Shown here: positions 4,577 to 21,510 of the stretch, piece after piece
Position numbering within the stretch: position 1 is the stretch's first letter
Layout: each line of letters opens with the position of its first letter
IMG/VR virus record: IMGVR_UViG_3300032081_000060
Location: 1 to 32,042 of that record
DNA length: 32,042 bases
Source: a virus
Taxonomy: Duplodnaviria > Caudoviricetes
Direction: 5' to 3' (one strand)
Notes under the pieces: model-generated
Told to the model about the DNA's origin: nothing
The model's input: the letters and a program-made list of their open reading frames with translations, nothing else
Databases searched by the model: none
Program-made: the position numbers and the translations under genes

Positions 4577-4602
4577 AAAAAAAAGGGGGCATTAGCCCCC
4601 TT
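4577..4602 (-). terminator. Rho-independent terminator after the major capsid gene
   Basis: Minus strand AAGGGGGC-TAAT-GCCCCC-TTTTTTTT. Confidence 0.9.
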
Positions 4603-4609: not shown

Positions 4610-4625
4610 TGTTTCATGTGAAACA
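4610..4625. promoter_or_regulatory. parS-like palindrome, copy 1
   Basis: TGTTTCATGTGAAACA, 15/16 match to bacterial chromosomal parS TGTTTCACGTGAAACA; lies between the capsid stop codon and the terminator. Confidence 0.7.
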
Positions 4626-4626
4626 A

Positions 4627-5544
4627 TTAAGCGCCTTGACTTCCGTAGATGCCTCGCCAATCGGAGAATCCGAAAGAATAACGCTCTCGCGCTTTGTATC
4701 GAATGTTTCCGGTGGTGAAGTCTGGTTCCATAGAGGTTTCCATCGCTGTGCGTTGGAACATCTTGAGACCTTCGCCTTGGTCTGTGACCGAAGTTAACAG
4801 GAAGAAAGCATCTGGGTCGTTCAGATAGTGGTTAACAGTGTAACCACCGGGCAGAACGCCAGTGTTTCGGATCGCGTTAACGTCATTGTCAGCAGTCCCA
4901 GATCGCTTCTCAGAATTCAAAATTCTGTCCGCAACAAATACCAACTGTGGAGGAACGACTAACTTAGTCGCCTGAACCGAAATGGTCAGTCCTCGGTCAT
5001 CAGTAAAGGTTGAGATATCAATCAAAGCGTCTTCGAGTGAAGTCTCGTTCAGGTCAGCCATCGTCGTAGCTCGGTTAGCAGCAGTGCCGCCACCAGCCAA
5101 AGGGTGAGAAGTGTTGATTAATGAAACACCGTCTCCGCCAGTAAAACTAGCAGAAAACGCATTGTTCAAAACATCAGCGCCTTTCACTTCCTTGGTGTTA
5201 GCCATTGATCGAGCCAGTGCTTTCACATATCGCTTACCGAGTGAGTCATACAAATTATCTTCGACTGCTTCATCGGTGAGCGCGAATGCCAAAGCAATCG
5301 TCTCGTGGGTGTAACGAGCTGAATAGCTTTCAGAAGCATTGTCAAAAACAACGCCTTGGCCTTCAGTCTTCGTGGGTGCTGAACCAAAACCAGTAATCAG
5401 AACCTCTTCTTCAAAAGCACGTTGAGAATCTTCGATTGCGTAGATCTCTTCGTACTCGCGGTCGTAGCTGTCATAGCTCATACCAAAGAGGCTGTTAAGG
5501 CCCGGCTCTAGCTCTTTCGCTAGTTGTGCGCGTGAAATTGCCAT
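4627..5544 (-). CDS. Major capsid protein
   Basis: 305 aa, MAISRAQLAKELEPGLN...RYKARERYSFGFSDWRGIYGSQGA; follows scaffold-like genes and precedes a strong terminator. Confidence 0.9.
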   Translation of the reverse strand: MAISRAQLAKELEPGLNSLFGMSYDSYDREYEEIYAIEDSQRAFEEEVLITGFGSAPTKTEGQGVVFDNASESYSARYTHETIALAFALTDEAVEDNLYDSLGKRYVKALARSMANTKEVKGADVLNNAFSASFTGGDGVSLINTSHPLAGGGTAANRATTMADLNETSLEDALIDISTFTDDRGLTISVQATKLVVPPQLVFVADRILNSEKRSGTADNDVNAIRNTGVLPGGYTVNHYLNDPDAFFLLTSVTDQGEGLKMFQRTAMETSMEPDFTTGNIRYKARERYSFGFSDWRGIYGSQGA

Positions 5545-5556
5545 TAGTCAGTCTCC

Positions 5557-6144
5557 TTATGCTAAGCCAGCAGATTTAACACCGGCAATGTGGTTTTGGA
5601 TAACCACAAGGACGTTGGTGTTAGCACTTGCTACGTCATCGTTATCGGGATCTTGAGAAATGTCCAGAGCTTTCAACGGCAAGGTTGTTGCAGTTGCGCC
5701 AGTGGTCACATCAAGTTCCACATTTGATCGGCCAGAAGCTGTATCACCAGTGGTGGCTTGGTCAACAATATCAAAATTGCCGAACAAATCCGCTACAGGG
5801 AAAGCTGCATCAGCTTGAACAGCAAAGACGGTCATGGGATCGTCTATGATGAAAGCAATGATGTCTGATGCCGCGATTGAACCGGGGTAGTAGTTAGAAA
5901 AAACCTGCTCACCGGATGTGGGGTCTGTGTATTGACACCCGTTAAAAACCCCGACTACGGGGACAGTGCTACTAGCTGCGGCTCGTTCGATACCGCCTCC
6001 GGTTACTTGCTTAACAAGATCTCCTTGGAAAATCTTGCCGCTCAAACCAGAAGCAATACGATATCGACTTTGGCCGCCAGAGTAGGGAGCACCACCCATC
6101 ATACGGACGGGGCGTAAACCAAAGGCTGCGTCTTTGTTAGCCAT
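5557..6144 (-). CDS. Capsid-associated (decoration/cement-like) protein
   Basis: 195 aa, MANKDAAFGLRP, IFQGDLV, GVFNGCQYTDP; immediately upstream of the capsid gene; GGAG RBS. Confidence 0.7.
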   Translation of the reverse strand: MANKDAAFGLRPVRMMGGAPYSGGQSRYRIASGLSGKIFQGDLVKQVTGGGIERAAASSTVPVVGVFNGCQYTDPTSGEQVFSNYYPGSIAASDIIAFIIDDPMTVFAVQADAAFPVADLFGNFDIVDQATTGDTASGRSNVELDVTTGATATTLPLKALDISQDPDNDDVASANTNVLVVIQNHIAGVKSAGLA

Positions 6145-6162
6145 TGTTTTTCTCCTTTAGAC

Positions 6163-6630
6163 TTATCGTCTGCCAAATGTTACTGAGGAGTCTCGCTGAG
6201 GGTCATACTTAACGTAACGTGAATCGCTGCGGGTTTCGTTGAACATTGTGTTATCCAATGCGTCACGAGCCGCTTGGTTCTTATCGTTATAATAAGAGTT
6301 TCGCTCTTCAATCGTTTCGTTAGGAATTTTCGCCAGCAATAATCCCTCGTTGTAAATGACGCCAGCATGTCTTCCAGAATCCATTGTGGGAAGTTCCCAC
6401 TCTGGAGGCAAGTCAGAACCTGTTACCAGTTCCCAACCTTCCCTTAACCTTCGACTTACGTTAGCTCGATCCTCTTGCCCTAACATGCTCTCTCGAATCC
6501 ACCGATAGGTGTAACCGGGAGGTGAGGGCGGAGTTTCCAGCTTACGAACTGGTCGCCACGGTCTACGTCGAGCCTTTTTATCGTGCGTCTCGGAATCACG
6601 CGAAGCGCGGGTTTTAGCTGTGTCTGTCAT
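6163..6630 (-). CDS. Conserved head-module protein
   Basis: 155 aa, PPGYTYRWIR...REGWELV; between scaffold and capsid genes. Confidence 0.75.
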   Translation of the reverse strand: MTDTAKTRASRDSETHDKKARRRPWRPVRKLETPPSPPGYTYRWIRESMLGQEDRANVSRRLREGWELVTGSDLPPEWELPTMDSGRHAGVIYNEGLLLAKIPNETIEERNSYYNDKNQAARDALDNTMFNETRSDSRYVKYDPQRDSSVTFGRR

Positions 6631-7574
6631 TATCTTGCCTCCCTTTGAGCAATTTTTTGCTTTTCTGATGCTACACGTTTAAGCCAAGCTTCCTCGGACA
6701 TATTGTGTGGCTTCAAACCACGGAGGCGCTGAAGTTCTGACTGAGTGAACTTAACACCACGCTTGTTGCTTCGTGTTTGTTGCCGACCAGCAGGGCTGGC
6801 GGAAGCGACTCTTTGCACGGCGGGTCTATCTTCCTGTTTATCGGCTTTCGGTTCTGACCTTAAATCAGGATAGATCCGAAAAACTCTTGTGTCCAACTCA
6901 TTGTAATACTCTTCTGAATCTGGTTCAAACCCCTCATTAATCAGGTTGAAATGCGTAAAATACGCAAACTGAGTTGCCTGAAGGTTTTCCTCGTTCTCAG
7001 AATCACCGTACCACTGATTTTGATCGTGCCAAGATAAAGCCTCATTTGTAGGCTTGATCTCTTGCTGAGGCGCTTGCGCCTGATCTTGATAAGCTTGATA
7101 ATTTTCTTGCTGAGGAGCGACTTGCTGCTCTGATGACTGAGTGTGCCTAGATTTGGCAACTCGAAGCTTTTCTTTCTGAATTGCAATGTCATTCTTTAGC
7201 GTATCAGCTTTTGATATTAGATCCGCATCACCAGAACGAATAGCCTTTCGATAAATATCGTCGATCTGGCTTTCTTTGCTTAGTAAAGCTTCTTCCTCTT
7301 TTTGAAGAACTGTGCTCTGCTGAACCACGGAATGTTGACGATAAGCGTTCAATTCCTGATCTTTTTGCATTGCTAATTGCTCAAGGTATTGAGCACGTTC
7401 TTCAGCTTGTTTGGTTTTTTGATTTAGCTTGTTAATCCGCTTGCTGACCGATTTGGTGTAGCGCTCAAGCTCGTCATCACTGTTGACTGCCCCGCCTTCT
7501 TGTTCTTCAGCCGGGTCTTCAACAATTTGAACTTCAATTTCTTCTTCTACCGCGTTTTGATTTTCTACACTCAT
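6630..7574 (-). CDS. Putative capsid scaffolding protein
   Basis: 314 aa, acidic N-terminus, coiled coil (KRINKL), basic C-terminus; position upstream of the capsid genes. Confidence 0.65.
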   Translation of the reverse strand: MSVENQNAVEEEIEVQIVEDPAEEQEGGAVNSDDELERYTKSVSKRINKLNQKTKQAEERAQYLEQLAMQKDQELNAYRQHSVVQQSTVLQKEEEALLSKESQIDDIYRKAIRSGDADLISKADTLKNDIAIQKEKLRVAKSRHTQSSEQQVAPQQENYQAYQDQAQAPQQEIKPTNEALSWHDQNQWYGDSENEENLQATQFAYFTHFNLINEGFEPDSEEYYNELDTRVFRIYPDLRSEPKADKQEDRPAVQRVASASPAGRQQTRSNKRGVKFTQSELQRLRGLKPHNMSEEAWLKRVASEKQKIAQREAR

Positions 7575-7993
7575 CGCCAGCTACTCACTATGTCTTCAGG
7601 GTTTAGGATAGTGCCAATAACTTCGTCATCGTTTATGATGCGAACCTCATCACCATCGTCCAACTTGAAACGAGCGCCTGCGTAACGTCCAATAAGAACC
7701 CAGCTACCCTCGTCGCACCAAGGTTTGTCGCCAAATTTCTCGGTATCTGCATAACAAAGTGGTCCCTTTTTAACAACATAAGCAACGACTGTTGCTAATG
7801 ATTCTCGGTCCACGGTTTCTTTTGTTAGATGAATGCCACCCTTACTCGTCCTTTTCCCAACATAGGGAATTACAAGCATCCGCCAACCAGACGGACTTGG
7901 CATACGATCCAACACGCTTTTGTCCAACAAGGAAGGATCTAAAACAAGATCATCCTTCTGAACGAAAGCCGATTCAATCGACGGTTTTGACAC
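7571..7993 (-). CDS. groES: Phage-encoded co-chaperonin GroES (Cpn10)
   Basis: PSGWRMLV, TSKGGIHL mobile loop, VVKKGP, GRYAG, RIINDDEVIG. Confidence 0.9.
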   Translation of the reverse strand: MSKPSIESAFVQKDDLVLDPSLLDKSVLDRMPSPSGWRMLVIPYVGKRTSKGGIHLTKETVDRESLATVVAYVVKKGPLCYADTEKFGDKPWCDEGSWVLIGRYAGARFKLDDGDEVRIINDDEVIGTILNPEDIVSSWR

Positions 7994-8184
7994 TAGCGCT
8001 CTCCTTTTGCGTAAAAATCTTGAATTGACTGTTCAACCAAGTTTAACGCAGTTAGCTCGCCTTGCAAACTTTTATAATGTTCCATATCTTTGAGCATACC
8101 TTCGCACAATGTTTCAACGATCAAACTTCTGCGATCAGCAATCATGCGCTTCAAAGATGAGGCTAGGTCAACATCGTCTCTCAT
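7993..8184 (-). CDS. Small conserved head-module protein
   Basis: 63 aa helical protein (DMEHYKSLQGEL), overlapping both neighbours. Confidence 0.75.
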   Translation of the reverse strand: MRDDVDLASSLKRMIADRRSLIVETLCEGMLKDMEHYKSLQGELTALNLVEQSIQDFYAKGER

Positions 8185-8411
8185 ACGCGCTCGTAATAAT
8201 CTAAGCCGCGAGTAGCTGCACCAGTGCCGCGAGTACGCATCTTCTTAACCTTAACCTTGAGCTGGCCTTTAGAAACCGCTCCACCGTCTTTCATGCCTTT
8301 AGCTGTTTTCATGGCAATAGCAACAGCTTGGTCTTGTGGCTTACCTTCTTTTCTTAACATGCTTATATTCCTGCTAATGGTTTTTTTTCCGCTACCCTTC
8401 TTCAGAGGCAT
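8181..8411 (-). CDS. Small basic protein (MPLKKG...QAVAIA...MKDGG...RGTGAATRG)
   Basis: 3' part of ORF 8181..8519; ATG at 8411 preceded by GAGGAG. Confidence 0.8.
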   Translation of the reverse strand: MPLKKGSGKKTISRNISMLRKEGKPQDQAVAIAMKTAKGMKDGGAVSKGQLKVKVKKMRTRGTGAATRGLDYYERV

Positions 8412-8718
8412 CGTCCTGCTCCTCAACAACCGATTTTTTCTTAAAAGAAACTTTTGTTTTTGCTTTGGGTTTAGGGCTTTCCTCGGCAGTCTCTGCAACA
8501 GCAGCCTTTGGCGCTTCAATTGAAACTGAAGCTTTTACTGGCGCAGATTCACCTCTTGCAATTCTTTCAACCTTGGCCTTAATTCTTGCCTCATTTGCGG
8601 CTTGCCTAAGCCCTTTCTCTTCTTCCATCTTTTCGACAACAGCTTTTTCGGCATCCCTCATAATTTTTTTGTAAGCCTTTAGCTCTTTTTGACGTTCTAA
8701 AATGTAACTCGTTGTCAT
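8392..8718 (-). CDS. Hypothetical charged protein
   Basis: 108 aa K/E/A-rich; start overlaps the portal stop (ATGA); GGAGG RBS. Confidence 0.7.
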   Translation of the reverse strand: MTTSYILERQKELKAYKKIMRDAEKAVVEKMEEEKGLRQAANEARIKAKVERIARGESAPVKASVSIEAPKAAVAETAEESPKPKAKTKVSFKKKSVVEEQDDASEEG

Positions 8719-11210
8719 CTGTAACCTCCGAATTTAGCCTGTAACTCAAGCAACTTTAACTCAGCTTGCTGCTCAAGTCTCTTCATGGCTATATCTAACT
8801 TGTCATCTGCTACGTCCTTCTGAACATCAATTCTTTGTTTCGATATTTCAGATTCAAGCAGCTTTTCTTGTTCTCGCTGAGCCTGTTTAGCATCAAATTG
8901 CTCTTGATCAGCAACTATCTCCTGTTCACGCAAATCAAGCTCTCTTTGCCTAATTTGGACTAGCGGGTCTTCTTCGTTGCCCTGACCAACTGACATTAAG
9001 AAATCTTGAGTCAATTGAGCCATGATCGGCGCTGAAAAACTTTCAGTAATCATTTGAATTTGACTTGCAACTTGTTGCTGTTGCTCTGGTGGAACCTGTT
9101 GCATTTGCTGTTCCATCTGCTGCATTTGCTGTTGAATCTCGGGAGGCATTTGCTCCTTTGCCATTTGGGTAGACATAAACTGCAAGTGCTGCATGCTATG
9201 AGCAATAATCAACGACTGCATTTGTGGGTTAGTTTTAACCACATCCGTAAGAAATAAAGACCTATGCGTGTCGATATGCGCTTGGTGGTTTTGTGGCTCA
9301 AAAGCCTGCTGTGGCTGACCTATCATCAAACCGCTGTTTTCGATACCAGCATCAACGGGTGCAGGAACCGGAGGTGGTGGTGGTGGCTGCAAAAGGCTGT
9401 CGATGTCATCTACGCCAAGAGCTGCGTACATTCTACGATAAGCCTCGTACATGCCTTGAGGCCCATGGATTTCTGGATTTGACTGCACAAGCTGCATCAG
9501 CTCTTGCGCCATCGTAATTCGTTGAGACTGGCTAAATATGTTGGGATCAGAAACCGGGATAACATCAACGCGGCCATCAAAGTCTGTTTGTTTTACTTGC
9601 TGATCGCCATTTGGCGTCTGGTACGGATACATCGGCGGCAAGTATTCAGCAAACACTTTGGCTAAAAGCTGAAACTCGATTCGCTGCGAATAATGCAATC
9701 GCTTGTGAATTGCGCTCATCACCTTGGTGCCGCGCTCTAACAAGGCAACCGTGGTACCAACCGGCATTGCTTGATTCATGTCGCCAACATTGGTGTCGGC
9801 AATTGAAGCAAATCTCTTGCCGGATTCAACCAACATTCCAAGTAATTGCATCAAGACATTTGAAGGCTCTTTGACAGGAAGCGGAATTAAATTTTCTCGC
9901 AACGACCCACCGGTTGTGTCAATATCTCGAAACTCTCCGGGCTGAAGCGGCTCATCCTCATCACGAATTCTCATCCCTCTTGCTTTAAAGCCGGAGGGTA
10001 AATTTGCGATGGTCCCGGCATCTATTAGTTGCCGCAGAATGGACGTTGAAGCCTTGGAGAGACCTCCGATCATGTGACTCAAACCAAGGCCATAAAACCC
10101 CAGTCCGGGCAAAAACTTGTACTGAACAAAGTAGTTAATTTTTTGTTTTAGCGGGTCTTGCTCAGCATAATTTCGACGGATTGCCAAAACCTGCTGACTT
10201 TGCTCGTCAATTGTGACGATATACGGGAGTTTTAATCCGGTTGGCTCTCCATCTGAGCCAACATCTTCATATCCGGGCAAATCCAAGATGGTATGAACCT
10301 CGTAAACCGTTCTATCCCGGTTTTCCGAATAATTCGGTGCCATACCCTCAATTTCATCAATTTCTTCTTCAATTTCGCTTCGGTTAGAAACGTAAGAGTC
10401 GCCTTTCAACTCAATATCCGCATAAAAACCGGTCAACTGCTGCTTGCGGATCTCGTTTTTGCTCATAGAGATCACATGAGTGACCCTTTCTGCCGACAAA
10501 ATGTCAGAAGATTCGTAAGGGACCACGAGATCTTCAGGAGCAATAAACTTCGAGACAGCCCTGCTAAGTGCTTGGTCGTAATAAACCTTCTTGAAAGCAG
10601 ATCCGGCGATAGGCAAGTAAAAAAGCAGCATATCTAGCTCTGGATCGTATTCTTTCATCACATTCATGATGTAAAAATTCATAAATCCAGAAACCCGCTG
10701 AGCCTGCATGTCTATTTCGGGGCTTCTTTTGCCGATAATTTCCGTTTTTACCGGTCCTTTGGCTGGGAGCAGCTCTTTGTATGCTTGAGCCTGAAATTGT
10801 GTAACCGACTCGGCTAAAATCGGGTGAATAACACCTGAAGATCCCTGAAATGGGGACGAACGCATTTCGTCAAACTTCATTCCCAAATATTTTAAACCGT
10901 CAACGTAGGTTTTTTCCCACTCGGATCGAGACTGCTTGTCTGATTCGATTGACTGCAAAACATCATCAGCAAGCTTTCCAATGTCGGACTTGTCGAGAAA
11001 ATCAACTAGGTTTGAATCGAAAGGTATTTGCGGCGTTTCTGGAACCGCGTCAATTTCTTCATCGATTAAAATTTCTTCTTCATCGACCAATATTTGAGCG
11101 GCATCTCTGATCATGTCTTCACGAGAAGGTTCTGGTGCGACTTCAACCTCTCGGGAAAGAGGAATTACGTCTGGGTCATCCTGAGTGCCTAAAAGTCTTT
11201 CAACTGCCAT
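8715..11210 (-). CDS. Portal protein
   Basis: 831 aa directly after terL; GSAFKKVYYD, GFYGLG, LIDAGT, PVGTT and a Gln-rich coiled-coil C-terminus as in P22-like portals. Confidence 0.9.
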   Translation of the reverse strand: MAVERLLGTQDDPDVIPLSREVEVAPEPSREDMIRDAAQILVDEEEILIDEEIDAVPETPQIPFDSNLVDFLDKSDIGKLADDVLQSIESDKQSRSEWEKTYVDGLKYLGMKFDEMRSSPFQGSSGVIHPILAESVTQFQAQAYKELLPAKGPVKTEIIGKRSPEIDMQAQRVSGFMNFYIMNVMKEYDPELDMLLFYLPIAGSAFKKVYYDQALSRAVSKFIAPEDLVVPYESSDILSAERVTHVISMSKNEIRKQQLTGFYADIELKGDSYVSNRSEIEEEIDEIEGMAPNYSENRDRTVYEVHTILDLPGYEDVGSDGEPTGLKLPYIVTIDEQSQQVLAIRRNYAEQDPLKQKINYFVQYKFLPGLGFYGLGLSHMIGGLSKASTSILRQLIDAGTIANLPSGFKARGMRIRDEDEPLQPGEFRDIDTTGGSLRENLIPLPVKEPSNVLMQLLGMLVESGKRFASIADTNVGDMNQAMPVGTTVALLERGTKVMSAIHKRLHYSQRIEFQLLAKVFAEYLPPMYPYQTPNGDQQVKQTDFDGRVDVIPVSDPNIFSQSQRITMAQELMQLVQSNPEIHGPQGMYEAYRRMYAALGVDDIDSLLQPPPPPPVPAPVDAGIENSGLMIGQPQQAFEPQNHQAHIDTHRSLFLTDVVKTNPQMQSLIIAHSMQHLQFMSTQMAKEQMPPEIQQQMQQMEQQMQQVPPEQQQQVASQIQMITESFSAPIMAQLTQDFLMSVGQGNEEDPLVQIRQRELDLREQEIVADQEQFDAKQAQREQEKLLESEISKQRIDVQKDVADDKLDIAMKRLEQQAELKLLELQAKFGGYR

Positions 11211-12694
11211 TAGTAATACACCTTTCTGTCACGAGGCAGAAATCTAGCCTCGTCTTGATAATCATCTTCGAGCGTAACAAAACCGCCCTGCCTGAACCTC
11301 ATTAGCGCCATTGTAGCAGAGTCGCAAAAGTCATCATGGTCGCCGTATGGGAAAGAAGCCATTTCCTCGATGACTTCCTCAGCAAACGTATCTTCTGACG
11401 CCCAAACCATCGCCGATTCAAATAACGGCGCGACACTGTTCATTCTTGCAATCTTATCCTGCCCCCGAGATGGTGTATAGGCCGTCACGGGGATGCCCAT
11501 TCTTCGCAATTCTTGGGTTAGGGGGGTGCCGGATGCCTTGGCCTCAATTAACACGCAATCAGGATCCCAATACTTGTACTCATCCATCGCAATCTTTTTA
11601 AGCTCCGGGAAATCGACACGGAACCGCTTAGCGTCTAATAATATTATGCACTCAGGACCATCGATTTCTGGTGTGAAAACTGCCCAAGTTGTAATGGCTG
11701 AATAGTCAGCGGTCTCTTTCTTCGAGAACGCCGTATCGTAGGACTGAATTACATAAGAATAGGCTGGCACATAATCCTTCTCCCAGATCTCCCACCACTC
11801 ACGTTTAACGATTGAGCCTTCTTCAGCGGTTGGATTCTGCATCCACTGGGAATTCCACTTGCCAATTGGCAAAGAAGCTTTAACGCTCAATAACTCTTCT
11901 TTCTTCCAGTATTCCGGCCACAAAGGTAATTCTGATTCTGGCATGATCGCTGGGAACTCGATCATCTCCCACTGATCAGCATGATCGTCACCTTGCTTTT
12001 TAATAACCTTGCCAACCAAGTCTTTAGTTGACCATCGCGTCATAACGATTACGATGATGCCTCCCGGCTGTAAACGCTGACGAGGACCAGAGGTATACCA
12101 CTCGTAAACCGAATCCATTGCGGTTGGAGAAAGGGCGTCTTGCTCAGAAACAGGGTCATCGATAATTAACAGGTCAGCACCGCGACCAGTAATCGCGCCA
12201 CCAACGCCCGAATAAAAAGATTCGCCACCCTCATTGGTGGTCCACCTACCGGCTGATTTGTTATCTGATTGAAGCTTCAGCTTCGGGAAGACTTCTTGAT
12301 AATCTTCTGAGTCAATGATGTTCCTGACTCTTCGACCGAACCGGACCGCAAGCTCGGCGGTGTGTGTGGTCTGAATAATTTTTAAGTCACCGCGCCGACC
12401 CATCATCCATGCAGGAAAATAGGTGCTCGCAAATTCTGATTTAGTATGACGAGGTGGCAAACAAACGATCAACCGTTTTAGCTTGCCTTGAGCAATACGG
12501 TTAAACTTTTCACCTATTATTTTATGGTGCCTTCCTTCAACAAAATCAGGCCACATGTGCTTAACGAATTTTATAAAATCGTTTTGGCAGTCATCTTGCT
12601 TTTCAAGTTGATCGTATTTTTTCAAAAGCGCTATGGCTTCTGTTTTTTCGGCGTCCGATAAAATGTCAAAGTCTTTTAGCGCAAGCTCAGACAT
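11210..12694 (-). CDS. terL: Terminase large subunit
   Basis: Walker A-like PPRHTKS, Walker B LLIIDDP, coupling motif MTRW, nuclease QSYDTA and HDDFCDS. Confidence 0.95.
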   Translation of the reverse strand: MSELALKDFDILSDAEKTEAIALLKKYDQLEKQDDCQNDFIKFVKHMWPDFVEGRHHKIIGEKFNRIAQGKLKRLIVCLPPRHTKSEFASTYFPAWMMGRRGDLKIIQTTHTAELAVRFGRRVRNIIDSEDYQEVFPKLKLQSDNKSAGRWTTNEGGESFYSGVGGAITGRGADLLIIDDPVSEQDALSPTAMDSVYEWYTSGPRQRLQPGGIIVIVMTRWSTKDLVGKVIKKQGDDHADQWEMIEFPAIMPESELPLWPEYWKKEELLSVKASLPIGKWNSQWMQNPTAEEGSIVKREWWEIWEKDYVPAYSYVIQSYDTAFSKKETADYSAITTWAVFTPEIDGPECIILLDAKRFRVDFPELKKIAMDEYKYWDPDCVLIEAKASGTPLTQELRRMGIPVTAYTPSRGQDKIARMNSVAPLFESAMVWASEDTFAEEVIEEMASFPYGDHDDFCDSATMALMRFRQGGFVTLEDDYQDEARFLPRDRKVYY

Positions 12695-13130
12695 GGCTCC
12701 AATCTTCGTTTGTGAATAAAAGTGATTCCGCCTCCCTTCTGCGGATCAAACCATCCAAAACTTTTCCACCAGCTTTGTTCCATCTCTGCATTTCTGAAGG
12801 AACTTGATCAAACTGGCTATCGTTCAAGCGTTTTAGCATGGTCGAGGAACGAAGATTACTCGGACCGAGGTTGTATGTCCATGCGACCAGTGCATCAAAT
12901 TCGTGTTGCTCAAGCGGCACTTTTACCGCTTCTTGAACATATCCTTCAAACTCTTCCAAATCTTCTTCAAGCATTCGGTCAGCATCTTCTTGAGTGCAAG
13001 CATCGCCTTCTTTAATACCTTGAGTGTGGCCATAACCAATCGTCCATACGTTTGCAGAACACTGATAAGCCTGAAGCTCACAGCCTTCAAATTTTTTAAT
13101 TAATGATCGCCCTTCTTCGCTAGTCTTCAT
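12687..13130 (-). CDS. Endolysin, GH24 phage lysozyme
   Basis: IKKFEGC...AYQCSANVWTIGYGHT, FDALV, YNLG, RWNKAGGKVLDGLIRRREAE. Confidence 0.95.
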   Translation of the reverse strand: MKTSEEGRSLIKKFEGCELQAYQCSANVWTIGYGHTQGIKEGDACTQEDADRMLEEDLEEFEGYVQEAVKVPLEQHEFDALVAWTYNLGPSNLRSSTMLKRLNDSQFDQVPSEMQRWNKAGGKVLDGLIRRREAESLLFTNEDWSHV

Positions 13131-13603
13131 TAGTCATGCTTATGTGATGCGCCGTAGTAGAAACTTATAATAGATGAGACGATACCGCCCAGATAACCGA
13201 GCACAAGATTAACAATCCCGTCATCATTCATGGCAGGATCTTGTAGTGTGACTAGGGCAATGTATCCGCCAAAAAATAATACACACGCAACCGCAATAAA
13301 TTTAGGCGTCCAGTCTCCTTTAAAAGCAAGCCTAGCGTTTTGTATATCCTCCGCCTCGAGTGCGAATACATCCACGTCTAACTTCTTCATCTGAACTTGG
13401 AAGTCGAGTTCAGCTTTTTTAATCTCTGCCAACTGCTCTGGGGTAGCCGCTTGTACTGCATTGGCAATACTTTTTTCATCGGGCTTGCATCCTAGTACGC
13501 TGGCGATTGTCTGTGCCGCAGCACCACCCAAAGGCCCACCAAGGGCTTGACCAAGGGTAGGCGCTACCGCACCGATTAATCCTTTGATTGCGTCAAATTT
13601 CAT
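13130..13603 (-). CDS. Holin-like membrane protein
   Basis: Gly/Ala-rich N-terminus plus two C-terminal transmembrane segments ending FYYGAS; adjacent to the lysozyme. Confidence 0.65.
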   Translation of the reverse strand: MKFDAIKGLIGAVAPTLGQALGGPLGGAAAQTIASVLGCKPDEKSIANAVQAATPEQLAEIKKAELDFQVQMKKLDVDVFALEAEDIQNARLAFKGDWTPKFIAVACVLFFGGYIALVTLQDPAMNDDGIVNLVLGYLGGIVSSIISFYYGASHKHD

Positions 13604-13800
13604 TGTGTTATTACCAACCCAACAATAGCTATTAACGAAGTAATCATAACGGGGTAGATACCCCAGATCATACGCTCTAATTTATCAAAGCGTTGTGACC
13701 CGGAGTCTAACCGTTCCTTAATAGACTCATACCGCAAAGCGCATTCAGCCTCATGAATCTCAATCTTCTTTAACGCTTTACTAGCATGAGTCTCAGCCAT
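13600..13800 (-). CDS. Small coiled-coil protein with C-terminal transmembrane helix (lysis module)
   Basis: HEAECALRY...RFDKLE followed by a hydrophobic tail. Confidence 0.75.
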   Translation of the reverse strand: MAETHASKALKKIEIHEAECALRYESIKERLDSGSQRFDKLERMIWGIYPVMITSLIAIVGLVITQ

Positions 13801-14060
13801 TAGTTCACCACTTCTGCTTCAGGTTCTTCAACCGCTTGAATTGAATCGCGCAGGGCGTTTTCACGAAAGCCTAATGCAACCTGTAAGTTAATGCTTTGCT
13901 GTTGAGCTGCTGCAATCTGATTCTGCAAATCACCAAGCTGCTTACGCAAATTAACCACTTCGACGTAGTGAACCTTGGAATCATTACCTAACTCGTTAAC
14001 GTCATACTCCTGATCGTCAATGGTCAGGATTACTGGTTGCTGTTCTTGTTGTTCGCTCAT
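13800..14060 (-). CDS. Hypothetical acidic coiled-coil protein
   Basis: 86 aa, strong AGGAGGAG RBS, LTIDDQEY motif. Confidence 0.75.
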   Translation of the reverse strand: MSEQQEQQPVILTIDDQEYDVNELGNDSKVHYVEVVNLRKQLGDLQNQIAAAQQQSINLQVALGFRENALRDSIQAVEEPEAEVVN

Positions 14061-14087
14061 AACTCCTCCTAGTTTTTAAATTAAGCG

Positions 14088-14495
14088 TTACTTTATTGTG
14101 CCACTTTTTTCAAGCTCGTTCACCTTCGACTCAAGATAACCTAACCTAATCTCTTGAGCATGGTTAGTACGGATCGCCTCCTGAACTTCTTGTGGTGGTG
14201 CCCAGTTGTTACGGAAGCTAGTGTTTAGATCAACCACCTTCTGCAACGCATCGATCTGACTGTTCTGAAGCAAATCATCGGGCAACGCACCCAACTCCCC
14301 ACGCGGCCATTTGATGCGAAACTCGCTGTTCATCTGTATATCGACTTCAAGAATGGTTAGCTGTCGCTCTAACACCGATATACGGTTAGTCACTTCTGTA
14401 TAACCAATTACCGCGATGGCAACCCCTGCGATGATGGCGATCAAGTTGCGTAACGGTATTTCGATCTTGGTTTCGTCCGATATTTGAGCGGCCAC
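14088..14495 (-). CDS. Membrane-anchored coiled-coil protein
   Basis: 135 aa, N-terminal transmembrane segment LIAIIAGVAIAVIGY, GTG start overlapping the upstream stop. Confidence 0.7.
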   Translation of the reverse strand: MAAQISDETKIEIPLRNLIAIIAGVAIAVIGYTEVTNRISVLERQLTILEVDIQMNSEFRIKWPRGELGALPDDLLQNSQIDALQKVVDLNTSFRNNWAPPQEVQEAIRTNHAQEIRLGYLESKVNELEKSGTIK

Positions 14496-14647
14496 TATTT
14501 TTTCCTGTCATTCCACAGCTCAAACAGTGTTCGGATCTTCTCCTTAATCTGCTCGATATCAGCGTGCATCTTAGCGAGCACGATAACCAAAGTTACGAAT
14601 CCCAAGGCGATAGGCCATATAGCCCCAATAGCGTCTAGCACATCCAT
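14495..14647 (-). CDS. 50-aa membrane protein (below the ORF-track cutoff)
   Basis: Hand translation MDVLDAIGAIWPIALGFVTLVIVLAKMHADIEQIKEKIRTLFELWNDRKK; fills the gap and its stop overlaps the next start. Confidence 0.75.
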   Translation of the reverse strand: MDVLDAIGAIWPIALGFVTLVIVLAKMHADIEQIKEKIRTLFELWNDRKK

Positions 14648-14669
14648 AACTTTGGTTGCTCACTACCGT

Positions 14670-14915
14670 CTAAGAAGCGGTGTAGCCATTACCTGCGCTG
14701 ATAGCTGCATTGACTGCGGTCATGTCTTCATCGCCCCAGTCATCTTTAGCAACCATAAGCTCAAGGTGCTCAGTGTTGCGGTCAACACAGTCTTGACGGT
14801 CTGCGGCATCATCATCAGCCATTTGTTCGCCAGCGATAATCGCGTTGATTAGGTCTACACTGTGGCCCATAGCCGTGTAGTCCTGTGCTAGTTGTTCGGT
14901 AGTACGGTCTTCCAT
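14670..14915 (-). CDS. Small acidic protein after the tail fibre
   Basis: 81 aa, AGGAG RBS. Confidence 0.7.
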   Translation of the reverse strand: MEDRTTEQLAQDYTAMGHSVDLINAIIAGEQMADDDAADRQDCVDRNTEHLELMVAKDDWGDEDMTAVNAAISAGNGYTAS

Positions 14916-14928
14916 TGTTTATCTCCTG

Positions 14929-17900
14929 TCAGGATTCTAGTGCCTCAATACGGGCGGTTAGTGCTGCGTTTTGTGCAGATAGTTCTTGGATGGCTTTGAC
15001 AAGAACGGGAATCAAGGCAGCTTCCGCTACTTCTTGTGAACCATCATCTCTTTCGTCCCAAAGTTTAAAGCCGTCTTTAATACTGTCATCTGCATCTATA
15101 GCTGCTTTAACTTCTTGGGCTATAAAGCCGTGTTGAGTTTGCGAGCTTTTAAAGGCTTCGGTTGAGCCTTCTTCGTAAGCCCTAAAAGATTCAGGCAATT
15201 CGCCTTTGTTTTTGTAGTTAAAGGTTCTGGGACGCAATGCGTTAATTAATGACAAGCCAGCTTCAGAATCTACAATGTCTTTCTTGTAACGTTCATCAGA
15301 TACAGTTGCCCATGTTACATTACCGTGTGCAGCTCTGATGTCGTCAGTGCCTGAGCCAAGAGTTGTATATCCTGCCGCTCCTGCAACATTATATCCTAAG
15401 ACCATTGCTCCATCTGCATCAGCCGCAGTAGCTCTTGAGTATGCACCTACTATTACGTTTCTTAAGCCTGTAGTATTTAGGACGTTATAATTAGCCGCGG
15501 CAAAACCCAGAAACGTGTTGCTGTGACCTGTAGTAGTGTCGCCACCTGCATGTTGCCCCACCATTGTGTTGCTGTGGCCTGTAGTGTTATCTTCACCAGC
15601 AAGACCACCAATGAGGGTGTTGTTAACGCCTGTGGTTACTCGTTTTCCTGCTTGGTCTCCTACTGCTGTATTGTAAGCATTTGTAGCTGACGTAAAGTTT
15701 TGAGTGCTAAGAGCCTCATTACCTATTGCAACAGAGGCACTTCCTTGTGTGTCCGTTGTTAGCGCTGCATAACCTAACGCTACGTTGTGGGTTCCTGTAG
15801 TAAGTGCATCCGCTGCTAGACCACCAATGATGGTATTTTGAACGCCTGTGGTTATATCATTACCTGCGGAGTACCCAACTGCTACATTGTACGTATCAGT
15901 GGCTGAGGTGAAGTTCTGCGCGGATAAGGTGGCAGTACCAATTGCTACACTTCTGCTTCCTAAAGTATCTGAAGCTAAAGCACTAACTCCTACAGCGACA
16001 TTGTAATCAGCATCAGTTAAAGCATCTCCCGCAACCCCACCTATGAGCGTATTTTGAATGCCGGTAGTGACTGATAACCCAGCACTAGTACCTACGGCAG
16101 TGTTATAACTTCCCGTAGTATGCTCAAACAAAGCGCGATACCCGATTCCAACACTACTTGTCCCAGTGGTATTATCGTAAAGCGCCTGATAACCTATTGC
16201 TATGTTGTTACTAGCGGTAGTGTTTGCCCTTAGAGCGTTTTGACCTAATGCGGTATTGCCAGCACCTGTTGTGTTTGAGCCTAAAGCACTTAAACCAACG
16301 GCTGTATTGTTAGCTGCTGTTGTGTTGGCGGCTAAGGAACTATCGCCTAAAGCTGTGTTGTATGAGCCTGTAGTATTAGATGCTAAAGCGCCTTGCCCGA
16401 AGGCAACATTCTGTGCGCCTGTGGTAATAGCGCCGCCTGCATTTACGCCTACTAAACTATTGTAAGAGCCAGTAGTAATCGCATCACCAGCAAGACCACC
16501 GATGAGGGTGTTTTGAACGCCTGTGGTTACATACCTACCTGCTTGCGATCCTACTGCTGTGTTGTAGGCATTAGCCGAACTGCTTTGATTTTGATTTTGC
16601 AATGCCCCCCAACCGACTGCAACGGACTGCTCGCCTTTTGTCTCAGTGCTAAGAGCTAAGTAACCGACTGCTACGTTTGCGGAGGCGGTGTTAACGGCAT
16701 CACCTGCAAGACCACCGATGATTGTATTTTGAACGCCTGTGGTTACTGCTTCACCAGCAGCATGTCCCACTGCAACATTGTAGGTTTCAACGGCGCTAGT
16801 GTTGGCCTGAAAGCGCAACGCAGAAAAACCAACGGCAACGCTTCTACTGCCTAAAGTGTCCGTGGTTAAAGCTTGGTATCCGACTGCAACATTGGCATCA
16901 GCATCAGTAAGCGCATCCCCTGCAAGACCACCGATGAGCGTATTTTGAACGCCGGTGGTGACTGCGGCTCCTGCGGCGTGACCAACTGCCACATTGTAAG
17001 TATCAGTCGCCGAAGTAAAGTTTTGAACATTAAGAGCAGAATCACCTATTGCAACGCTCTTGCTTCCCAAAGTATCGCTAGTTAAGGCTGCTCTCCCAAT
17101 AGCTACGTTATTGTCAGCATCTGTAAGAGCATCACCAGCTAGACCGCCTATGAGCGTATTGTGAATGCCTGTGGTGACTGATGTGCCTGCTTGTGAGCCA
17201 ACAGCCGTATTGTAAGCATCAGTAGCTGACGTGAAGTTTTGACTACGTAGAGCAAAATCACCAAGAGCTACGCTATGGCTTCCTTGTGTATCAGAACTTA
17301 ACGAACCATTACCTACAGCTACATTCTGATTGCCCACAGTAAGAGCATCACCTGAAACTGACCCTATGAGAGTATTTTTAATGCCCGTGGTTACTGATAG
17401 CCCTGCATGATAACCCACGGCAGTATGGTTAGTACCTGTGGTGTTTGCGGTTAAAGCACCTGTACCAACTGCTGTATTATTACTTGCAGTATTTGCAAAT
17501 AAAGCACCTTTTCCAAGTGCTGTATTATCAGCACCTGTAATGTTTGATGACAAAGCTGCATAACCTAAAGCAGTATTTTGAGATGCTGTAGTGTTAGCAT
17601 CAAGGGCTAAAGAACCTACTGCTACATTATATTGACCTGTGGTGTTTACATTTAAAGCTGACCTACCAACTGCTGTGTTGTAAGATGCTGTGGTGTTAAA
17701 TGCTAAAGCCCTATTACCTATCGCCACATTATTAGAACCTGTAGTATTATCAAATAGTGCATGATAGCCTACAGCATCATTATCTACACCTGTGGTGTTG
17801 TTACCTAAAGCTCCACCACCAAAAGCGTTATTTTCGTCCCCTGTTGTGTTGTCTGCTAAAGCTTGATAACCAACTGCTGTGTTGTTAGATGCAGTTGTAT

Positions 17901-19329
17901 TAGCCCTCAAGGCATCTTTACCAATTCCTGTATTGTTAGCACCTGTTGTATTAGTTAATAATGAACCACTGCCAAAAGCAGAATTATTAGATGCTGTCGT
18001 AGTATTTGCTGCTGCACCATCACCAACTGCTGTGTTAAAAGAACCTGTAGTTAAATCAGTAAGCGATTCGCTACCAACAGCAACATTATAGTTACCTGTG
18101 GTAAGTGCATCTAAAGAAATTCTACCTACAGCTACGTTAGCAGAACCTTCAGTATTTGCTGTTAAGGCATTAGCACCTACTGCTACGTTATATTGACCTG
18201 TGGTGTTTGCAGTAAGCGCGGAAGAACCAATCGCTACGTTTGCCCCGCCACTTAACGATCCGTCATCCAGTGCCTGATTACCCAGCGCAACGTTGTTTGC
18301 ACCAACAGGGTAGTTCCCATCCAGCTTAATTGATCCGCTGTCTACTGAAAATTCACCAGCTACGGTAAGCCCGTCTGTGACAGCAGTTCCCGTTACGTCG
18401 ATGCCTGTGGCTGTGGTGGCTAGTTTTTGGTTATTGTTGTGATACAGCTTGACATCATCGTCGTCATTAAAAACGGCAAAAACTTCGTTAAAACCTCTGT
18501 CCGCAAAGATAATCCTGTCATCGGACTCCATGCGAATTTCGCCAGTGGCGTTGCCGTTACGAATTAAGCCATCTGTGCCGTTGCTTAAAATCTCAAGGTC
18601 AGAGCCAGCGCCGAAGATGGCTTTGGCATTGTCAGGCATAGTGATGCCGTTAGTATGGACAGTAGCGGCAGTTGTAGTCAGTACGCCTGTGACAAGCGCA
18701 GTACCTGACACATCAAGGTTGCCATTCAAGTCAACTGTAGTCGCAGCAATTTGAATTTCAGTGTCTGCAACGAGATCTAACTGACCGTCTGCGCTTGAGT
18801 TGATGTAGATCGCTGAGTCGCGGAACTGAATCTTTTGGTCGGTGGTGGTCGTATTGCCAGCCGTTAAAACCTCAGCCAACGTATCCGTCACACCGGGATC
18901 AACAAGCGCCATCGCGTCAACAACTGCGGCACCAGCCCCTGCTCCGTCGAGATAAACAACCGCCGTCTTGCCCGTGGCAATTGTGACGTTCGCGCCTGAG
19001 CCTTGAGAAATTGCAATCGATTGAGAACCAGATGTTGCGTTCTCGATGAACATGACGCGGGAAAGGGTGTTTGGTGCAATCGTTAACGTGCGGGTCGTTG
19101 TCAGACTTACCGCTGAAGTAATCTTGTAATACATTGCTCGCGCTGGGTCTGATACCCCATCGGCAACCGTGGTCGTTGCGTCAGCATCGCTGCCAAAAGC
19201 TTGCTGAGTCGCGTAACCTAACGCCTCGCCGATTAGCTCTAAGTTAGTATTGGTGGTTGTACCCCAAGTACCGGAGCCTTCCCCAGTCGCAAGTTCTGTC
19301 AATCTTAAATCGTTAACGTAGGTTGCCAT
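14929..19329 (-). CDS. Long tail fibre with beta-repeat shaft and C-terminal peptidase S74 intramolecular chaperone
   Basis: N-terminal anchor GEGSGTWGTTTNTNL; dozens of N-x-A-V-G-x-x-A-L-x-x-N-T-T-G repeats; SDERYKKDI...HGFIAQEV...LVKAIQEL. Confidence 0.9.
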   Translation of the reverse strand: MATYVNDLRLTELATGEGSGTWGTTTNTNLELIGEALGYATQQAFGSDADATTTVADGVSDPARAMYYKITSAVSLTTTRTLTIAPNTLSRVMFIENATSGSQSIAISQGSGANVTIATGKTAVVYLDGAGAGAAVVDAMALVDPGVTDTLAEVLTAGNTTTTDQKIQFRDSAIYINSSADGQLDLVADTEIQIAATTVDLNGNLDVSGTALVTGVLTTTAATVHTNGITMPDNAKAIFGAGSDLEILSNGTDGLIRNGNATGEIRMESDDRIIFADRGFNEVFAVFNDDDDVKLYHNNNQKLATTATGIDVTGTAVTDGLTVAGEFSVDSGSIKLDGNYPVGANNVALGNQALDDGSLSGGANVAIGSSALTANTTGQYNVAVGANALTANTEGSANVAVGRISLDALTTGNYNVAVGSESLTDLTTGSFNTAVGDGAAANTTTASNNSAFGSGSLLTNTTGANNTGIGKDALRANTTASNNTAVGYQALADNTTGDENNAFGGGALGNNTTGVDNDAVGYHALFDNTTGSNNVAIGNRALAFNTTASYNTAVGRSALNVNTTGQYNVAVGSLALDANTTASQNTALGYAALSSNITGADNTALGKGALFANTASNNTAVGTGALTANTTGTNHTAVGYHAGLSVTTGIKNTLIGSVSGDALTVGNQNVAVGNGSLSSDTQGSHSVALGDFALRSQNFTSATDAYNTAVGSQAGTSVTTGIHNTLIGGLAGDALTDADNNVAIGRAALTSDTLGSKSVAIGDSALNVQNFTSATDTYNVAVGHAAGAAVTTGVQNTLIGGLAGDALTDADANVAVGYQALTTDTLGSRSVAVGFSALRFQANTSAVETYNVAVGHAAGEAVTTGVQNTIIGGLAGDAVNTASANVAVGYLALSTETKGEQSVAVGWGALQNQNQSSSANAYNTAVGSQAGRYVTTGVQNTLIGGLAGDAITTGSYNSLVGVNAGGAITTGAQNVAFGQGALASNTTGSYNTALGDSSLAANTTAANNTAVGLSALGSNTTGAGNTALGQNALRANTTASNNIAIGYQALYDNTTGTSSVGIGYRALFEHTTGSYNTAVGTSAGLSVTTGIQNTLIGGVAGDALTDADYNVAVGVSALASDTLGSRSVAIGTATLSAQNFTSATDTYNVAVGYSAGNDITTGVQNTIIGGLAADALTTGTHNVALGYAALTTDTQGSASVAIGNEALSTQNFTSATNAYNTAVGDQAGKRVTTGVNNTLIGGLAGEDNTTGHSNTMVGQHAGGDTTTGHSNTFLGFAAANYNVLNTTGLRNVIVGAYSRATAADADGAMVLGYNVAGAAGYTTLGSGTDDIRAAHGNVTWATVSDERYKKDIVDSEAGLSLINALRPRTFNYKNKGELPESFRAYEEGSTEAFKSSQTQHGFIAQEVKAAIDADDSIKDGFKLWDERDDGSQEVAEAALIPVLVKAIQELSAQNAALTARIEALES
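15596..17400. repeat. 216-bp (72-aa) coding repeat array in the tail fibre
   Basis: Related ~45-bp cores (CCxGCAAGACCACCGATGAG...TGAACGCCTGTGGTTAC) at 15596, 15812, 16028 and at 16487, 16703, 16919, 17135, 17351. Confidence 0.85.
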
Positions 19330-19344
19330 TTCAAACCCTCATGC

Positions 19345-20058
19345 TTATGCTGCATCTCTCCCAGCCGCTATGGGCGCGTAACCGGGTGTTTGTGTTGTAT
19401 CAATCTCTGAATATCCTGCGGATTGACTTGTATCAATATCAATATAGTTGGGATCTTGCCCCGGAACTATCTCTCCCCAAACCAAGGGGGTTCCTAAACT
19501 GATTGTAACCGATTGTCCAGTTAAAGAAACTACCGAACCAGCAACAGTTGTCACATCGCCAAGCGCTGAATTGATCTGCTGGCCGGTTAAAAATACATTG
19601 TTAACCGTCCTAACGGTAGCGGTTCCGAGGGCGGAAGTGATCTGCTGGCCGGTTAGCGCTACATTTGCTTCAGCGTCAACGATCAGAGATCCAAGACCAG
19701 ATGTTGTTTGAACGCCTGATGGCTGAACAATCGCCCTTGCGACGATCTGAATTGAACCAACCGCTGAAGTAATCTGCTGACCGGTAGGCGTGACATTTGC
19801 CTCAGCGTCTACGCTTAAAGCGCCAAGCCCACTGGCAATACCTTGCCCGGTAAGTGTGACATTCGCTTCGGCATCGACCGCTGGCGAACCTAGCCCAGAA
19901 TTAATCTGCAAGCCGGTAAGCTGAACCACCGCCCCAGCAACAACGGTCATAGACCCGACCGCCGAAGTTGTTTGCTGGCCCGTTACCGGAACATTAATGT
20001 AAAGAGGGGTTCCCCAAGCACCTAAACCCCAAGTGCCGCGACCCCATCCTTCCTGCAT
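19345..20058 (-). CDS. Tail-associated repeat protein
   Basis: WGRGTWGLGAWG N-terminus and about nine 20-aa repeats V-x-L-T-G-Q-Q-I-T-S-A-L-G; directly upstream of the fibre. Confidence 0.8.
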   Translation of the reverse strand: MQEGWGRGTWGLGAWGTPLYINVPVTGQQTTSAVGSMTVVAGAVVQLTGLQINSGLGSPAVDAEANVTLTGQGIASGLGALSVDAEANVTPTGQQITSAVGSIQIVARAIVQPSGVQTTSGLGSLIVDAEANVALTGQQITSALGTATVRTVNNVFLTGQQINSALGDVTTVAGSVVSLTGQSVTISLGTPLVWGEIVPGQDPNYIDIDTSQSAGYSEIDTTQTPGYAPIAAGRDAA

Positions 20059-20059
20059 G

Positions 20060-20206
20060 TCAGTCGCCTATCAATTGACTCTCGGCATCCTTGAGATGAG
20101 CAACCGCAGTTGTCATGATGTCACGCACAGCGTCCGTCATGAAATCTTGCTCAAGCGAGGCTTCGAGTTTGGCGATGGCCAGTTGTATATCCTGTAAAGC
20201 AGTCAT
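20060..20206 (-). CDS. 48-aa helical hypothetical protein (below the ORF-track cutoff)
   Basis: AGGAG RBS; MTALQDIQLAIAKLEASLEQDFMTDAVRDIMTTAVAHLKDAESQLIGD; stop lies 1 bp before the next ATG. Confidence 0.75.
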   Translation of the reverse strand: MTALQDIQLAIAKLEASLEQDFMTDAVRDIMTTAVAHLKDAESQLIGD

Positions 20207-20228
20207 AACTACTCCTAAGTGAATGCCC

Positions 20229-20257
20229 ATCTTAATCCTTTATGCTGCGCTTGATAA
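20229..20257 (-). promoter_or_regulatory. Possible sigma70-type promoter for the tail/lysis/head operon
   Basis: TTATCA-17 bp-TAAGAT upstream of the 20206 RBS. Confidence 0.3.
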
Positions 20258-21028
20258 GCCTTGATATTTACGATCTAAAATACGCCGAACCTTGGTCCCG
20301 TACATATTCTGACCCTTGTACAAGCTATTGATCTGCTTGGCGATACTGTTTGGAGCAAGACCTCGGGCGCGGAGGCGATGAATCGACTTCAGCACCTTTT
20401 GCTCTTCTGGATGCTCAACCAAGCGCTTGCGCGTCTTGTTACCAATCTTCACAGGTTCGGCAATATATCCGAACGGGACGGATCCACCGATAAAGAATCC
20501 GCGAGCCGCCCAATCGACCTTACCCTCGCCAAATCGATCCTTGATGTTGGCATGCTCAATCTCAGCAACCGCTGATAATACCATCAGCATGATCTTGTTT
20601 GCCATGTCGGACATATCAAACCGCGACTTCAAACCCTTCTCGTCTGCAAATTTAGGGTAAACAATCGGCATATCTCCGAACTGCTCACAGAAAAACAACG
20701 TGATGTTGGTCTCTTGCAGAACCGGAATCATCGATAGTAAATCGGAAGTTGATCGAGACAATCTATCAAGTCGAGTGCAGACAATAACGTCAGATTCGTC
20801 CATCACATCAGTCATGGCGCGAGATCCGGGGCGCTCAAGAATATCGACTGTGCCGCTTACGCCATCGTCAATAAACCACTTATCGACCGGGCGATTGTAT
20901 TTATTCTTAACGAACTCGCTGATCAAAGACTGCTGGGTCTCGATAGAAACGCCAGACTTCGACTGCTCTTTGGTTGATACCCGGCAATAGCCATAAATCA
21001 TGTTGATCTGGGTGATAGGTCTAATCAC
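20240..21028 (-). CDS. Serine recombinase (resolvase/invertase family)
   Basis: YGYCRVST (catalytic Ser), DDGVSG, RLDRLSR, AEIEHANIKDR, GGSVPFGY and a short C-terminal HTH-like region. Confidence 0.9.
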   Translation of the reverse strand: MIRPITQINMIYGYCRVSTKEQSKSGVSIETQQSLISEFVKNKYNRPVDKWFIDDGVSGTVDILERPGSRAMTDVMDESDVIVCTRLDRLSRSTSDLLSMIPVLQETNITLFFCEQFGDMPIVYPKFADEKGLKSRFDMSDMANKIMLMVLSAVAEIEHANIKDRFGEGKVDWAARGFFIGGSVPFGYIAEPVKIGNKTRKRLVEHPEEQKVLKSIHRLRARGLAPNSIAKQINSLYKGQNMYGTKVRRILDRKYQGLSSAA

Positions 21029-21258
21029 TTGATTCCTCCCTTGTAACCGTAGTTAGCCATCTCTTCGTGCAACCGCCTCCAGTCAATATCGAGCGGTTTA
21101 CGACCAAGAGCGCGGTCAGCAAACATGACCCTGCCATCCTTTACCAGCTCGACGGCTCGATACATTTTGGGTACACCGTCATACACAATCTCTATATCAT
21201 GAAGCTTACAGGTGCGGCGGACGCGGTTGTAATACACTTTCTTTTCTTGGGCGCTCAT
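21025..21258 (-). CDS. Hypothetical protein
   Basis: 77 aa, GAGGAG RBS, stop overlaps the recombinase start. Confidence 0.75.
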   Translation of the reverse strand: MSAQEKKVYYNRVRRTCKLHDIEIVYDGVPKMYRAVELVKDGRVMFADRALGRKPLDIDWRRLHEEMANYGYKGGIK

Positions 21259-21307
21259 TTTTACTCCTCGGTTAATATGAACGCATTAGAGCATAGAAAG
21301 AGTCTAT

Positions 21308-21346
21308 GTGCAAACAGTTGCACACAAACACGGCAAGAGGTACAAT
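21308..21346 (+). promoter_or_regulatory. Palindromic operator-like site with an overlapping sigma70-type promoter in a divergent region
   Basis: GTGCAA-ACAG-TTGCAC (21308-21323); TTGCAC-17 bp-TACAAT (21318-21346). Confidence 0.55.
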
Positions 21347-21348
21347 CC

Positions 21349-21510
21349 ATGAGCAAGATCATTATTGAGCTTGATAAAGAAGAAGCAGAAGTTGTTTTGG
21401 AAAACCACGGGCAGATCGTTGATCTACTCGAAAAGATACTAGCGGAGACCAAGAAGAATGGAAAAATACTTCGAGACAATAAGCCGAACAATGTTTCATG
21501 TGAAACATAA
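21349..21510 (+). CDS. Small hypothetical protein (53 aa)
   Basis: MSKIIIELDKEEAEVVLENHGQ..., GAGG RBS; 3' part of ORF 21067..21510. Confidence 0.55.
   Translation: MSKIIIELDKEEAEVVLENHGQIVDLLEKILAETKKNGKILRDNKPNNVSCET

Follow-up and report, generated by a model that had tools for sequence, protein, structure and literature searches.

Why would a phage that encodes no partition proteins carry what looks like a bacterial centromere? The question is raised by IMG/VR virus record IMGVR_UViG_3300032081_000060, a Caudoviricetes sequence of 32,042 nt that was analysed over its whole length (the window, ~61% of the genome) and in which the 16-mer TGTTTCATGTGAAACA occurs twice. From the letters alone, the original prediction took the two copies for chromosomal-type parS sites through which a phage without parAB might hijack the ParB of its host. 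Comparison of related phage sequences indicates that, at a single locus, this phage group has rebuilt a host-type parS six times. Such recurrence strongly suggests that the site has a function in hosts that are probably non-sporulating. Three features are needed from the start:

4610–4625, no strand assigned: parS-type site 1, 1 nt past the capsid stop codon, lineage-restricted
21492–21507, no strand assigned: parS-type site 2, within open reading frame (ORF) B; this is the site that the family conserves
21458–21628, plus strand: ORF B, encoding a conserved 56-aa protein, codons 12–17 of which encode site 2

The two identical copies lie where they had been predicted, and the window holds no further match at up to three mismatches. 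The count of two was reached by none of 100 shuffles, and the degenerate consensus TGTTYCAYRTGRAACA has an expectation of ~1.3e-4 exact copies for the window. Two details of the first description need correction: the 16-mers are near-palindromes, their exact symmetry being broken by the central TG, and the single additional base pair claimed for each palindrome does not describe site 1, which extends by 2 bp. Site 1 is carried unchanged by contigs from other studies (X11 record 5; X5 record 17, the latter flagged as near-identical and possibly a source of the record), and site 2 is unchanged in all four metagenome runs compared. An assembly artefact is ruled out by these independent contigs with both sites unchanged.

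Judged by its sequence, the phage 16-mer is a variant of chromosomal parS. The chromosomal consensus is given as TGTTTCAC-GTGAAACA, from which the Noc site (NBS) differs at positions 1 and 6 (PMC7383237, in the excerpt consulted), and the parS of ParABS is also printed as TGTTNCACGTGAAACA (PMC7022226, likewise in excerpt). The phage site agrees with the consensus at 15 of 16 bases, the single mismatch lying at the centre, and its positions 1 and 6 are of the parS and not of the Noc type. For alphaproteobacterial samples at the level of class, phylum and family, a metagenome-assembled genome labelled Pelagibacter (G091) served as the reference. The exact phage 16-mer is present in 33 of 301 genomes of its class (reversed control, 1/301), and 17 of the 25 genomic copies retrieved lie within 1.5 kb of mnmE, mnmG, rsmG, parA or parB, the remaining eight lying elsewhere; two genomes, G313 and G459, have the phage-type 16-mer as the sole parS form found. 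At the family level, matches occur in 44 of 61 genomes and almost always have a CG centre, and a degenerate motif derived from the variants seen in the phages is matched by 250 of 301 genomes at the phylum level (control, 6), where the matches listed are mostly CG-centred. In a different class, that of G092, which by its size is not the Gammaproteobacteria, 110 genomes yielded no copy of the exact 16-mer.

Site 2 is, on the pattern of substitutions, conserved as DNA rather than as protein. It had been described as lying within small overlapping ORFs, of which the frame read as MFHVKH is indeed a gene, ORF B; the VSCET frame is a lineage-specific tail of a second one:

21349–21510, plus strand: ORF A, a small upstream gene with 38 related loci

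The C-terminal tail of ORF A overlaps site 2 in close relatives only, and in distant relatives ORF A stops before the site. Scans of viral and metagenome contigs recovered 160 redundant loci with ORF B homologues, and the site is present in 56 of the 98 distinct ORF B sequences. Positions 5 and 12 form a symmetric pair (T:A or C:G) in 52 of these 56. Parsimony assigns four and six changes to positions 5 and 12 and none to the wobble positions 11 and 14, compared with a median of seven at third positions elsewhere (two of 47 columns have none), counts that are approximate since the tree was built from a short gene. In two loci (L497 and L507), the site is identical to that of the window at 16 of 16 bases, while the rest of ORF B is 49% identical. 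The left half of site 2 encodes a conserved M/L-F-H, as a by-product of protein coding would; however, the ORF B residues vary only among motif-keeping codons (M/L, V/M/A, K/E and H/Q/P), and whole ORF B clades are without F-H.

The site has also moved. The 158 loci scored (the 160 minus two truncated ones) were scanned with a degenerate motif that takes in the TTCC..GGAA forms missed by the consensus with two mismatches. A scan of relatives against a control had been proposed as a check: exactly one parS-type site was found in 133 of the 158 loci, 102 times inside ORF B and 31 times upstream of it, no locus had two, and the reversed control gave none. Upstream sites occupy five non-homologous positions (−23, −29, −178, −199 and −548 relative to ORF B), the cases at −609, −196 and −785 being shifted copies of other upstream positions, and they sit in other reading frames or between genes. 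When the sequences are clustered at 80%, the site is inside ORF B in 12 clusters, outside in seven and absent from seven, and none of the 26 clusters has both an inside and an outside site (Fisher p 0.006, for lineages that are not independent). All but one (G007) of six long genomes carry, in the ORF B island, a site that has one mismatch or none.

Most members of the family use a form of the site that departs from the consensus at its centre. Out of 134 sites, 115 have CA or TG there, 18 have CG and one has TA, and the full consensus is never used (0/134). The family is depleted in palindromic hexamers generally (median observed/expected ~0.5), and CACGTG is the extreme case, with none observed against 61 expected in 76 capsid loci and one against 25 in six genomes; all 15 CACGTG copies of the ORF B loci fall inside the site. 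The CA/TG centre likely keeps the arms that ParB reads while avoiding CACGTG, presumably under pressure from restriction. The same picture would arise if the host used CA/TG-centred parS of its own, or if the site were tuned to a lower affinity. The strong genome-wide depletion of GTGCAC, CACGTG, CGTACG and GCTAGC is a possible fingerprint of host restriction systems.

Site 1 behaves differently from site 2 and is probably a patchy, lineage-restricted add-on. Its immediate surroundings are:

4627–5544, minus strand: major capsid protein, HTVC023P/CRP-901-like (PF25209 and phrog_371)
4575–4602, minus strand: hairpin with U run following the capsid gene, like an intrinsic terminator by sequence and RNA fold

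As had been noticed, site 1 is squeezed between the capsid stop codon and the GC hairpin of this terminator, and similar hairpins stand behind most of 80 related capsid genes. Only six of the 80 (89–97% identical) have site 1, in the same place and with a CA or TG centre. The capsid gene of the window shares 92% DNA identity with the site-less loci L127–L129 and 78% with the site-carrying L181, but its last capsid codons, site 1 and the terminator match L181; this mosaic is most simply read as the gain by recombination of a patch of ~55 bp with site 1. More distant capsid genes (L011, L076, L121, L015 and L017) also have a parS-type site behind them, and G001 has both sites, as the window does. 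The two copies are not a fixed pair: in three near-complete relatives (G006, G008 and G087) the only site lies in the ORF B island.

No parA or parB gene had been seen in the window, and none emerged from searches of its 41 proteins or from six-frame searches of the record. The parallel search of further genomes gave the same outcome, ParB_N (PF02195) being found in none of 11 family records, four of which are at least 90% complete, and the ParA family AAA_31 (PF13614) in none of five. The ParB_N-negative records include two site-carrying, near-complete genomes, each with an exact motif match, G006 (97%) and G087 (93%), and a Pfam scan of 48 further G006 proteins returned no partition family. 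A parA and parB pair of the phage's own beside the site, as in the parABS cassette of a plasmid-prophage, was not found. What stands of the proposed hijack of host ParB through a cis-only parS is thus a host-type parS under selection at the DNA level and, in the relatives searched, no phage ParB or ParA domain.

The window is the entire record, and syntenic near-complete relatives are 49–52 kb long. Metagenome runs that cover most of the capsid region are from seawater or estuaries. Annotated proteins comprise the capsid, portal, terminase, GroES, lysozyme, tail spike, a small serine recombinase, RusA and a Toprim/VapE primase-helicase. The capsid is 57–64% identical to those of DSL-LC04, HTVC023P, HTVC027P and CRP-901/902, and the primase reaches only ~34% identity to that of any named phage. 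The seawater habitat and the kinship of the head genes with those of phages of Pelagibacter and Roseobacter point to a host that is probably non-sporulating. Elsewhere in the window, a 33-nt tandem repeat lies in the left-end ORF (50–130), the tail spike gene contains repeats at 216-nt spacing (~15.6–17.7 kb), and a polyvalent-type protein of 1201 aa is encoded at 21797–25402, with a weak ART-PolyVal match below the cut-off; it is absent from five long relatives, and G006 has a RelA/SpoT-domain protein in the interval.

Next to ORFs A and B, three further features complete the neighbourhood of site 2:

20240–21028, minus strand: small serine recombinase (PF00239, plus a C-terminal match to PF07508 at no better than E 0.2), with transcription directed away from ORFs A and B
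21025–21258, minus strand: 77-aa ORF upstream of the recombinase, with no family assigned and sub-threshold atlas matches only
21307–21324, no strand assigned: inverted repeat TGTGCAA-N4-TTGCACA in the divergent gap between the 77-aa ORF and ORF A

The recombinase starts 464 bp from site 2, in agreement with the ~460 bp first estimated, and would be a resolvase or a compact integrase. It is present in 15 of 20 viral records, including all four that are at least 90% complete (G007 among them), and in none of nine named phage genomes. G007 rules out that recombinase and site are strictly coupled. Related forms of the inverted repeat, a candidate phage operator or recombinase site, occur in close relatives.

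What, then, would the sites do? Host ParB likely binds them in one role or another. In the reading that we prefer, which we put a little short of even, the sites load host ParB so that unintegrated phage DNA is positioned and inherited in a delayed or carrier-type infection, with the recombinase as a dimer resolvase. By analogy with ParABS, host ParB bound to cytidine triphosphate (CTP) would load at the parS-type site, slide, and engage ParA and SMC. The adjacent recombinase might resolve dimers of a circular genome, in which case recombinase and parS would together form a plasmid-like stability module working with borrowed proteins; this is the weakest step of the proposal.

Several observations weigh against this reading. 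All records are classed as linear, end repeats were not found in them, and there is no sign of a plasmid or carrier state. The recombinase resembles compact phage integrases at 25–28% identity, and G007 (94% complete) keeps it without a site. In the DNA examined, 25 of the 158 ORF B loci have no site, and site 1 is missing from 74 of the 80 capsid relatives, the closest ones included. A search by capsid found four loci in genome contigs, two of them close, and did not identify the host; both close loci look like binned phage contigs and are without the site, and a host search with the recombinase found no match at E≤1e-40 in 251 sampled genomes. Homologues of the lysozyme are almost all without an organism name. 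Plasmid-borne parS lowers the viability of Caulobacter 100- to 1000-fold (PMC5815017, in the part consulted), a toxicity that implies a cost for a stable episome. Finally, the site stays within ~600 bp of ORF B (785 bp with insertions), and since segregation should work from any position, its fixed neighbourhood favours a use tied to that locus and fits a local role better than segregation.

Such a local role is the strongest rival, and we regard it as a distinct if minor possibility. Here, host ParB would spread across the divergent promoter gap that separates the recombinase from the ORF A/B operon, repress or time the genes on either side, and let the phage read the ParB/CTP state. The six independent positions, clustered close to the ORF B start with never more than one site per locus, speak for it, as does the sole site of G006, G008 and G087 in the ORF B island; ParB of Caulobacter spreads ~2 kb per site (PMC5815017, same excerpt), and a promoter-like match lies at 21319–21346, at a score not above that of shuffles. 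What argues against it is site 1, lodged at a distance from the ORF B island between the capsid stop codon and its terminator.

That the sites are decoys, with multiplying phage DNA drawing ParB off the host centromere and stalling chromosome segregation and division in lytic growth, we consider unlikely. The toxicity of extra-chromosomal parS in Caulobacter would suit a decoy, some candidate hosts have only one or two sites of their own, and the window and G001 have gained a second one. Yet a decoy should favour many copies of the strongest sequence anywhere in the genome, whereas this family has one or two, confined to a fixed region, and nowhere uses the consensus in full.

Marginally less likely still is that a phage protein, most plausibly ORF B, binds the site, autoregulates its own gene and might compete with ParB at the host centromere. 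The site is always in or just upstream of ORF B, and the protein is predicted to fold into a three-helix bundle (predicted local distance difference test, pLDDT, 91) whose weak matches, the best at Z 6.1, include many winged-helix and Myb-type DNA-binding domains. Z values of 5–6 are, however, common for helical bundles, and ORF B gave no Pfam match at E≤1, no atlas match and no Foldseek match, with a weak PHROG match for one of 47 members; the fold comparison rules out no family. Moreover, ORF B persists in site-less lineages, the tolerated variation of the motif mirrors that of chromosomal parS, and the 16-mer is also found next to phage genes of other kinds, phi29-like collars and T7-like heads among them.

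A ParB-like protein of the phage's own, encoded in the missing 39% of the genome, is very improbable: the record is incomplete and very divergent ParB-fold proteins can escape PF02195, but the 11 ParB_N-negative records, with the site-carrying G006 and G087 among them, and the 48 further G006 proteins speak against it. Least credible, and largely refuted by the turnover, is that coding for F-H-x-K-H, or an RNA hairpin, produced the 16-mer as a by-product: a stem of 7–8 bp (−7 kcal/mol, RNA fold) can form at each site, but only one of seven pairs covaries, namely the one that is variable in parS, and sites recur in different reading frames and in intergenic DNA, site 1 itself being non-coding.

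To return to borrowed segregation, its widest form would make this a widespread marine phage group that exists part of the time as an unintegrated circle and borrows the whole ParABS/SMC machinery of its host via one movable parS in a CACGTG-free, restriction-escaping form. We offer this as a tentative proposal that is more probably wrong than right. If true, carrier-state infection of slow-growing, non-sporulating ocean bacteria would gain both a mechanism and a sequence marker.

How far the site extends among viruses can be estimated from stored sequences. The exact 16-mer is estimated to occur in ~2,000 viral stretches (from 4 of 64 parts) and the parS consensus in ~5,700 (from 2 of 64 parts), as against 46 and 21 for control motifs scanned in full; the viral figures include some host DNA and coding coincidences. 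Set against the controls, the counts suggest that the trick may be common. In other phages, the neighbours of the 16-mer include phi29-like collar, T7-like head and replication genes (80 neighbouring ORFs, compared with PHROGs only). Contigs of 15–17 kb with phi29-like collar genes (L018–L020, L257–L258 and L284–L286) have three to five parS copies each, as phi29 does. Among 265 sampled viral loci with either 16-mer, ten (L056, L013, L343, L249, L236, L270, L246, L311, L005 and L217) have the site ~60–370 bp upstream of a terminase 34–68% identical to that of the window, which suggests a further place where the site recurs in phages that share the head module.

Of nine named phage genomes, two contain the core motif. 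HTVC027P has it at 16413–16426 (L459:2914–2927), CG-centred as in genomes of the SAR11 family and in an unannotated frame read P-H-Q-Y-A-F-H-V-K-H, a reading that would also suit a coding by-product; together with Pelagibacter, this phage forms a cultured phage-host pair in which parS borrowing could be tested. In Alcaligenes phage QDWS535, which is distantly related by its capsid, GTTCCACGTGGAAC lies at 47935–47948 (L460:2436–2449) inside a small annotated ORF. Phages of the HTVC023P/CRP-901 type resemble the window phage in capsid (57–61% identical), terminase (34–58%), GroES and a similar head gene order; they differ in its Toprim/VapE primase-helicase replication module and in the serine recombinase, which is absent from the nine named genomes tested. 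A paper on HTVC023P-type phages (PMC9599517) contains no occurrence of parS or ParB. No report of parS in marine or HTVC023P-type phages was found in a literature search that covered mainly the main text of open-access papers, and the phage 16-mer itself was not found printed in the literature searched.

Plasmid-prophages such as P1, N15 and mycobacteriophages with parABS bring along a ParA and a ParB that act at replicon-specific sites, and many plasmid stability regions have a site-specific recombinase nearby. The window phage resembles them in having a centromere on phage DNA with a recombinase close by, and differs in that no ParA or ParB of its own was found. With chromosomal parS it shares the exact variant, which occurs at mnmG, rsmG and parAB loci of alphaproteobacterial genomes where coding-embedded sites are also found; unlike chromosomal parS, the site stands on a phage, away from oriC and parAB, and avoids the full consensus.

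The closest parallel is phi29, whose five parS sites are used with host Spo0J for entrapment in the spore (PMC2731898, in the excerpt consulted). As in phi29 and Nf, the window phage has a cis-only chromosomal parS on a phage genome and would need no phage ParB (PMC2731898). In contrast to the five sites of phi29 and the spores of its Gram-positive host, the window family comprises marine phages with one or two sites, a probably non-sporulating host, a CA/TG centre, a coding-embedded site and repeated relocation near a serine recombinase; Spo0J binding was shown for phi29, whereas ParB binding is here predicted. In the literature found, borrowing of host ParB via parS is documented only for phi29-like phages of spore formers, and PMC12991052, in the portion consulted, keeps the idea within spore formers as well. 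Hence, the borrowing principle is known from phi29, and what is new is the turnover of the site and its presence in phages of a probably non-sporulating host.

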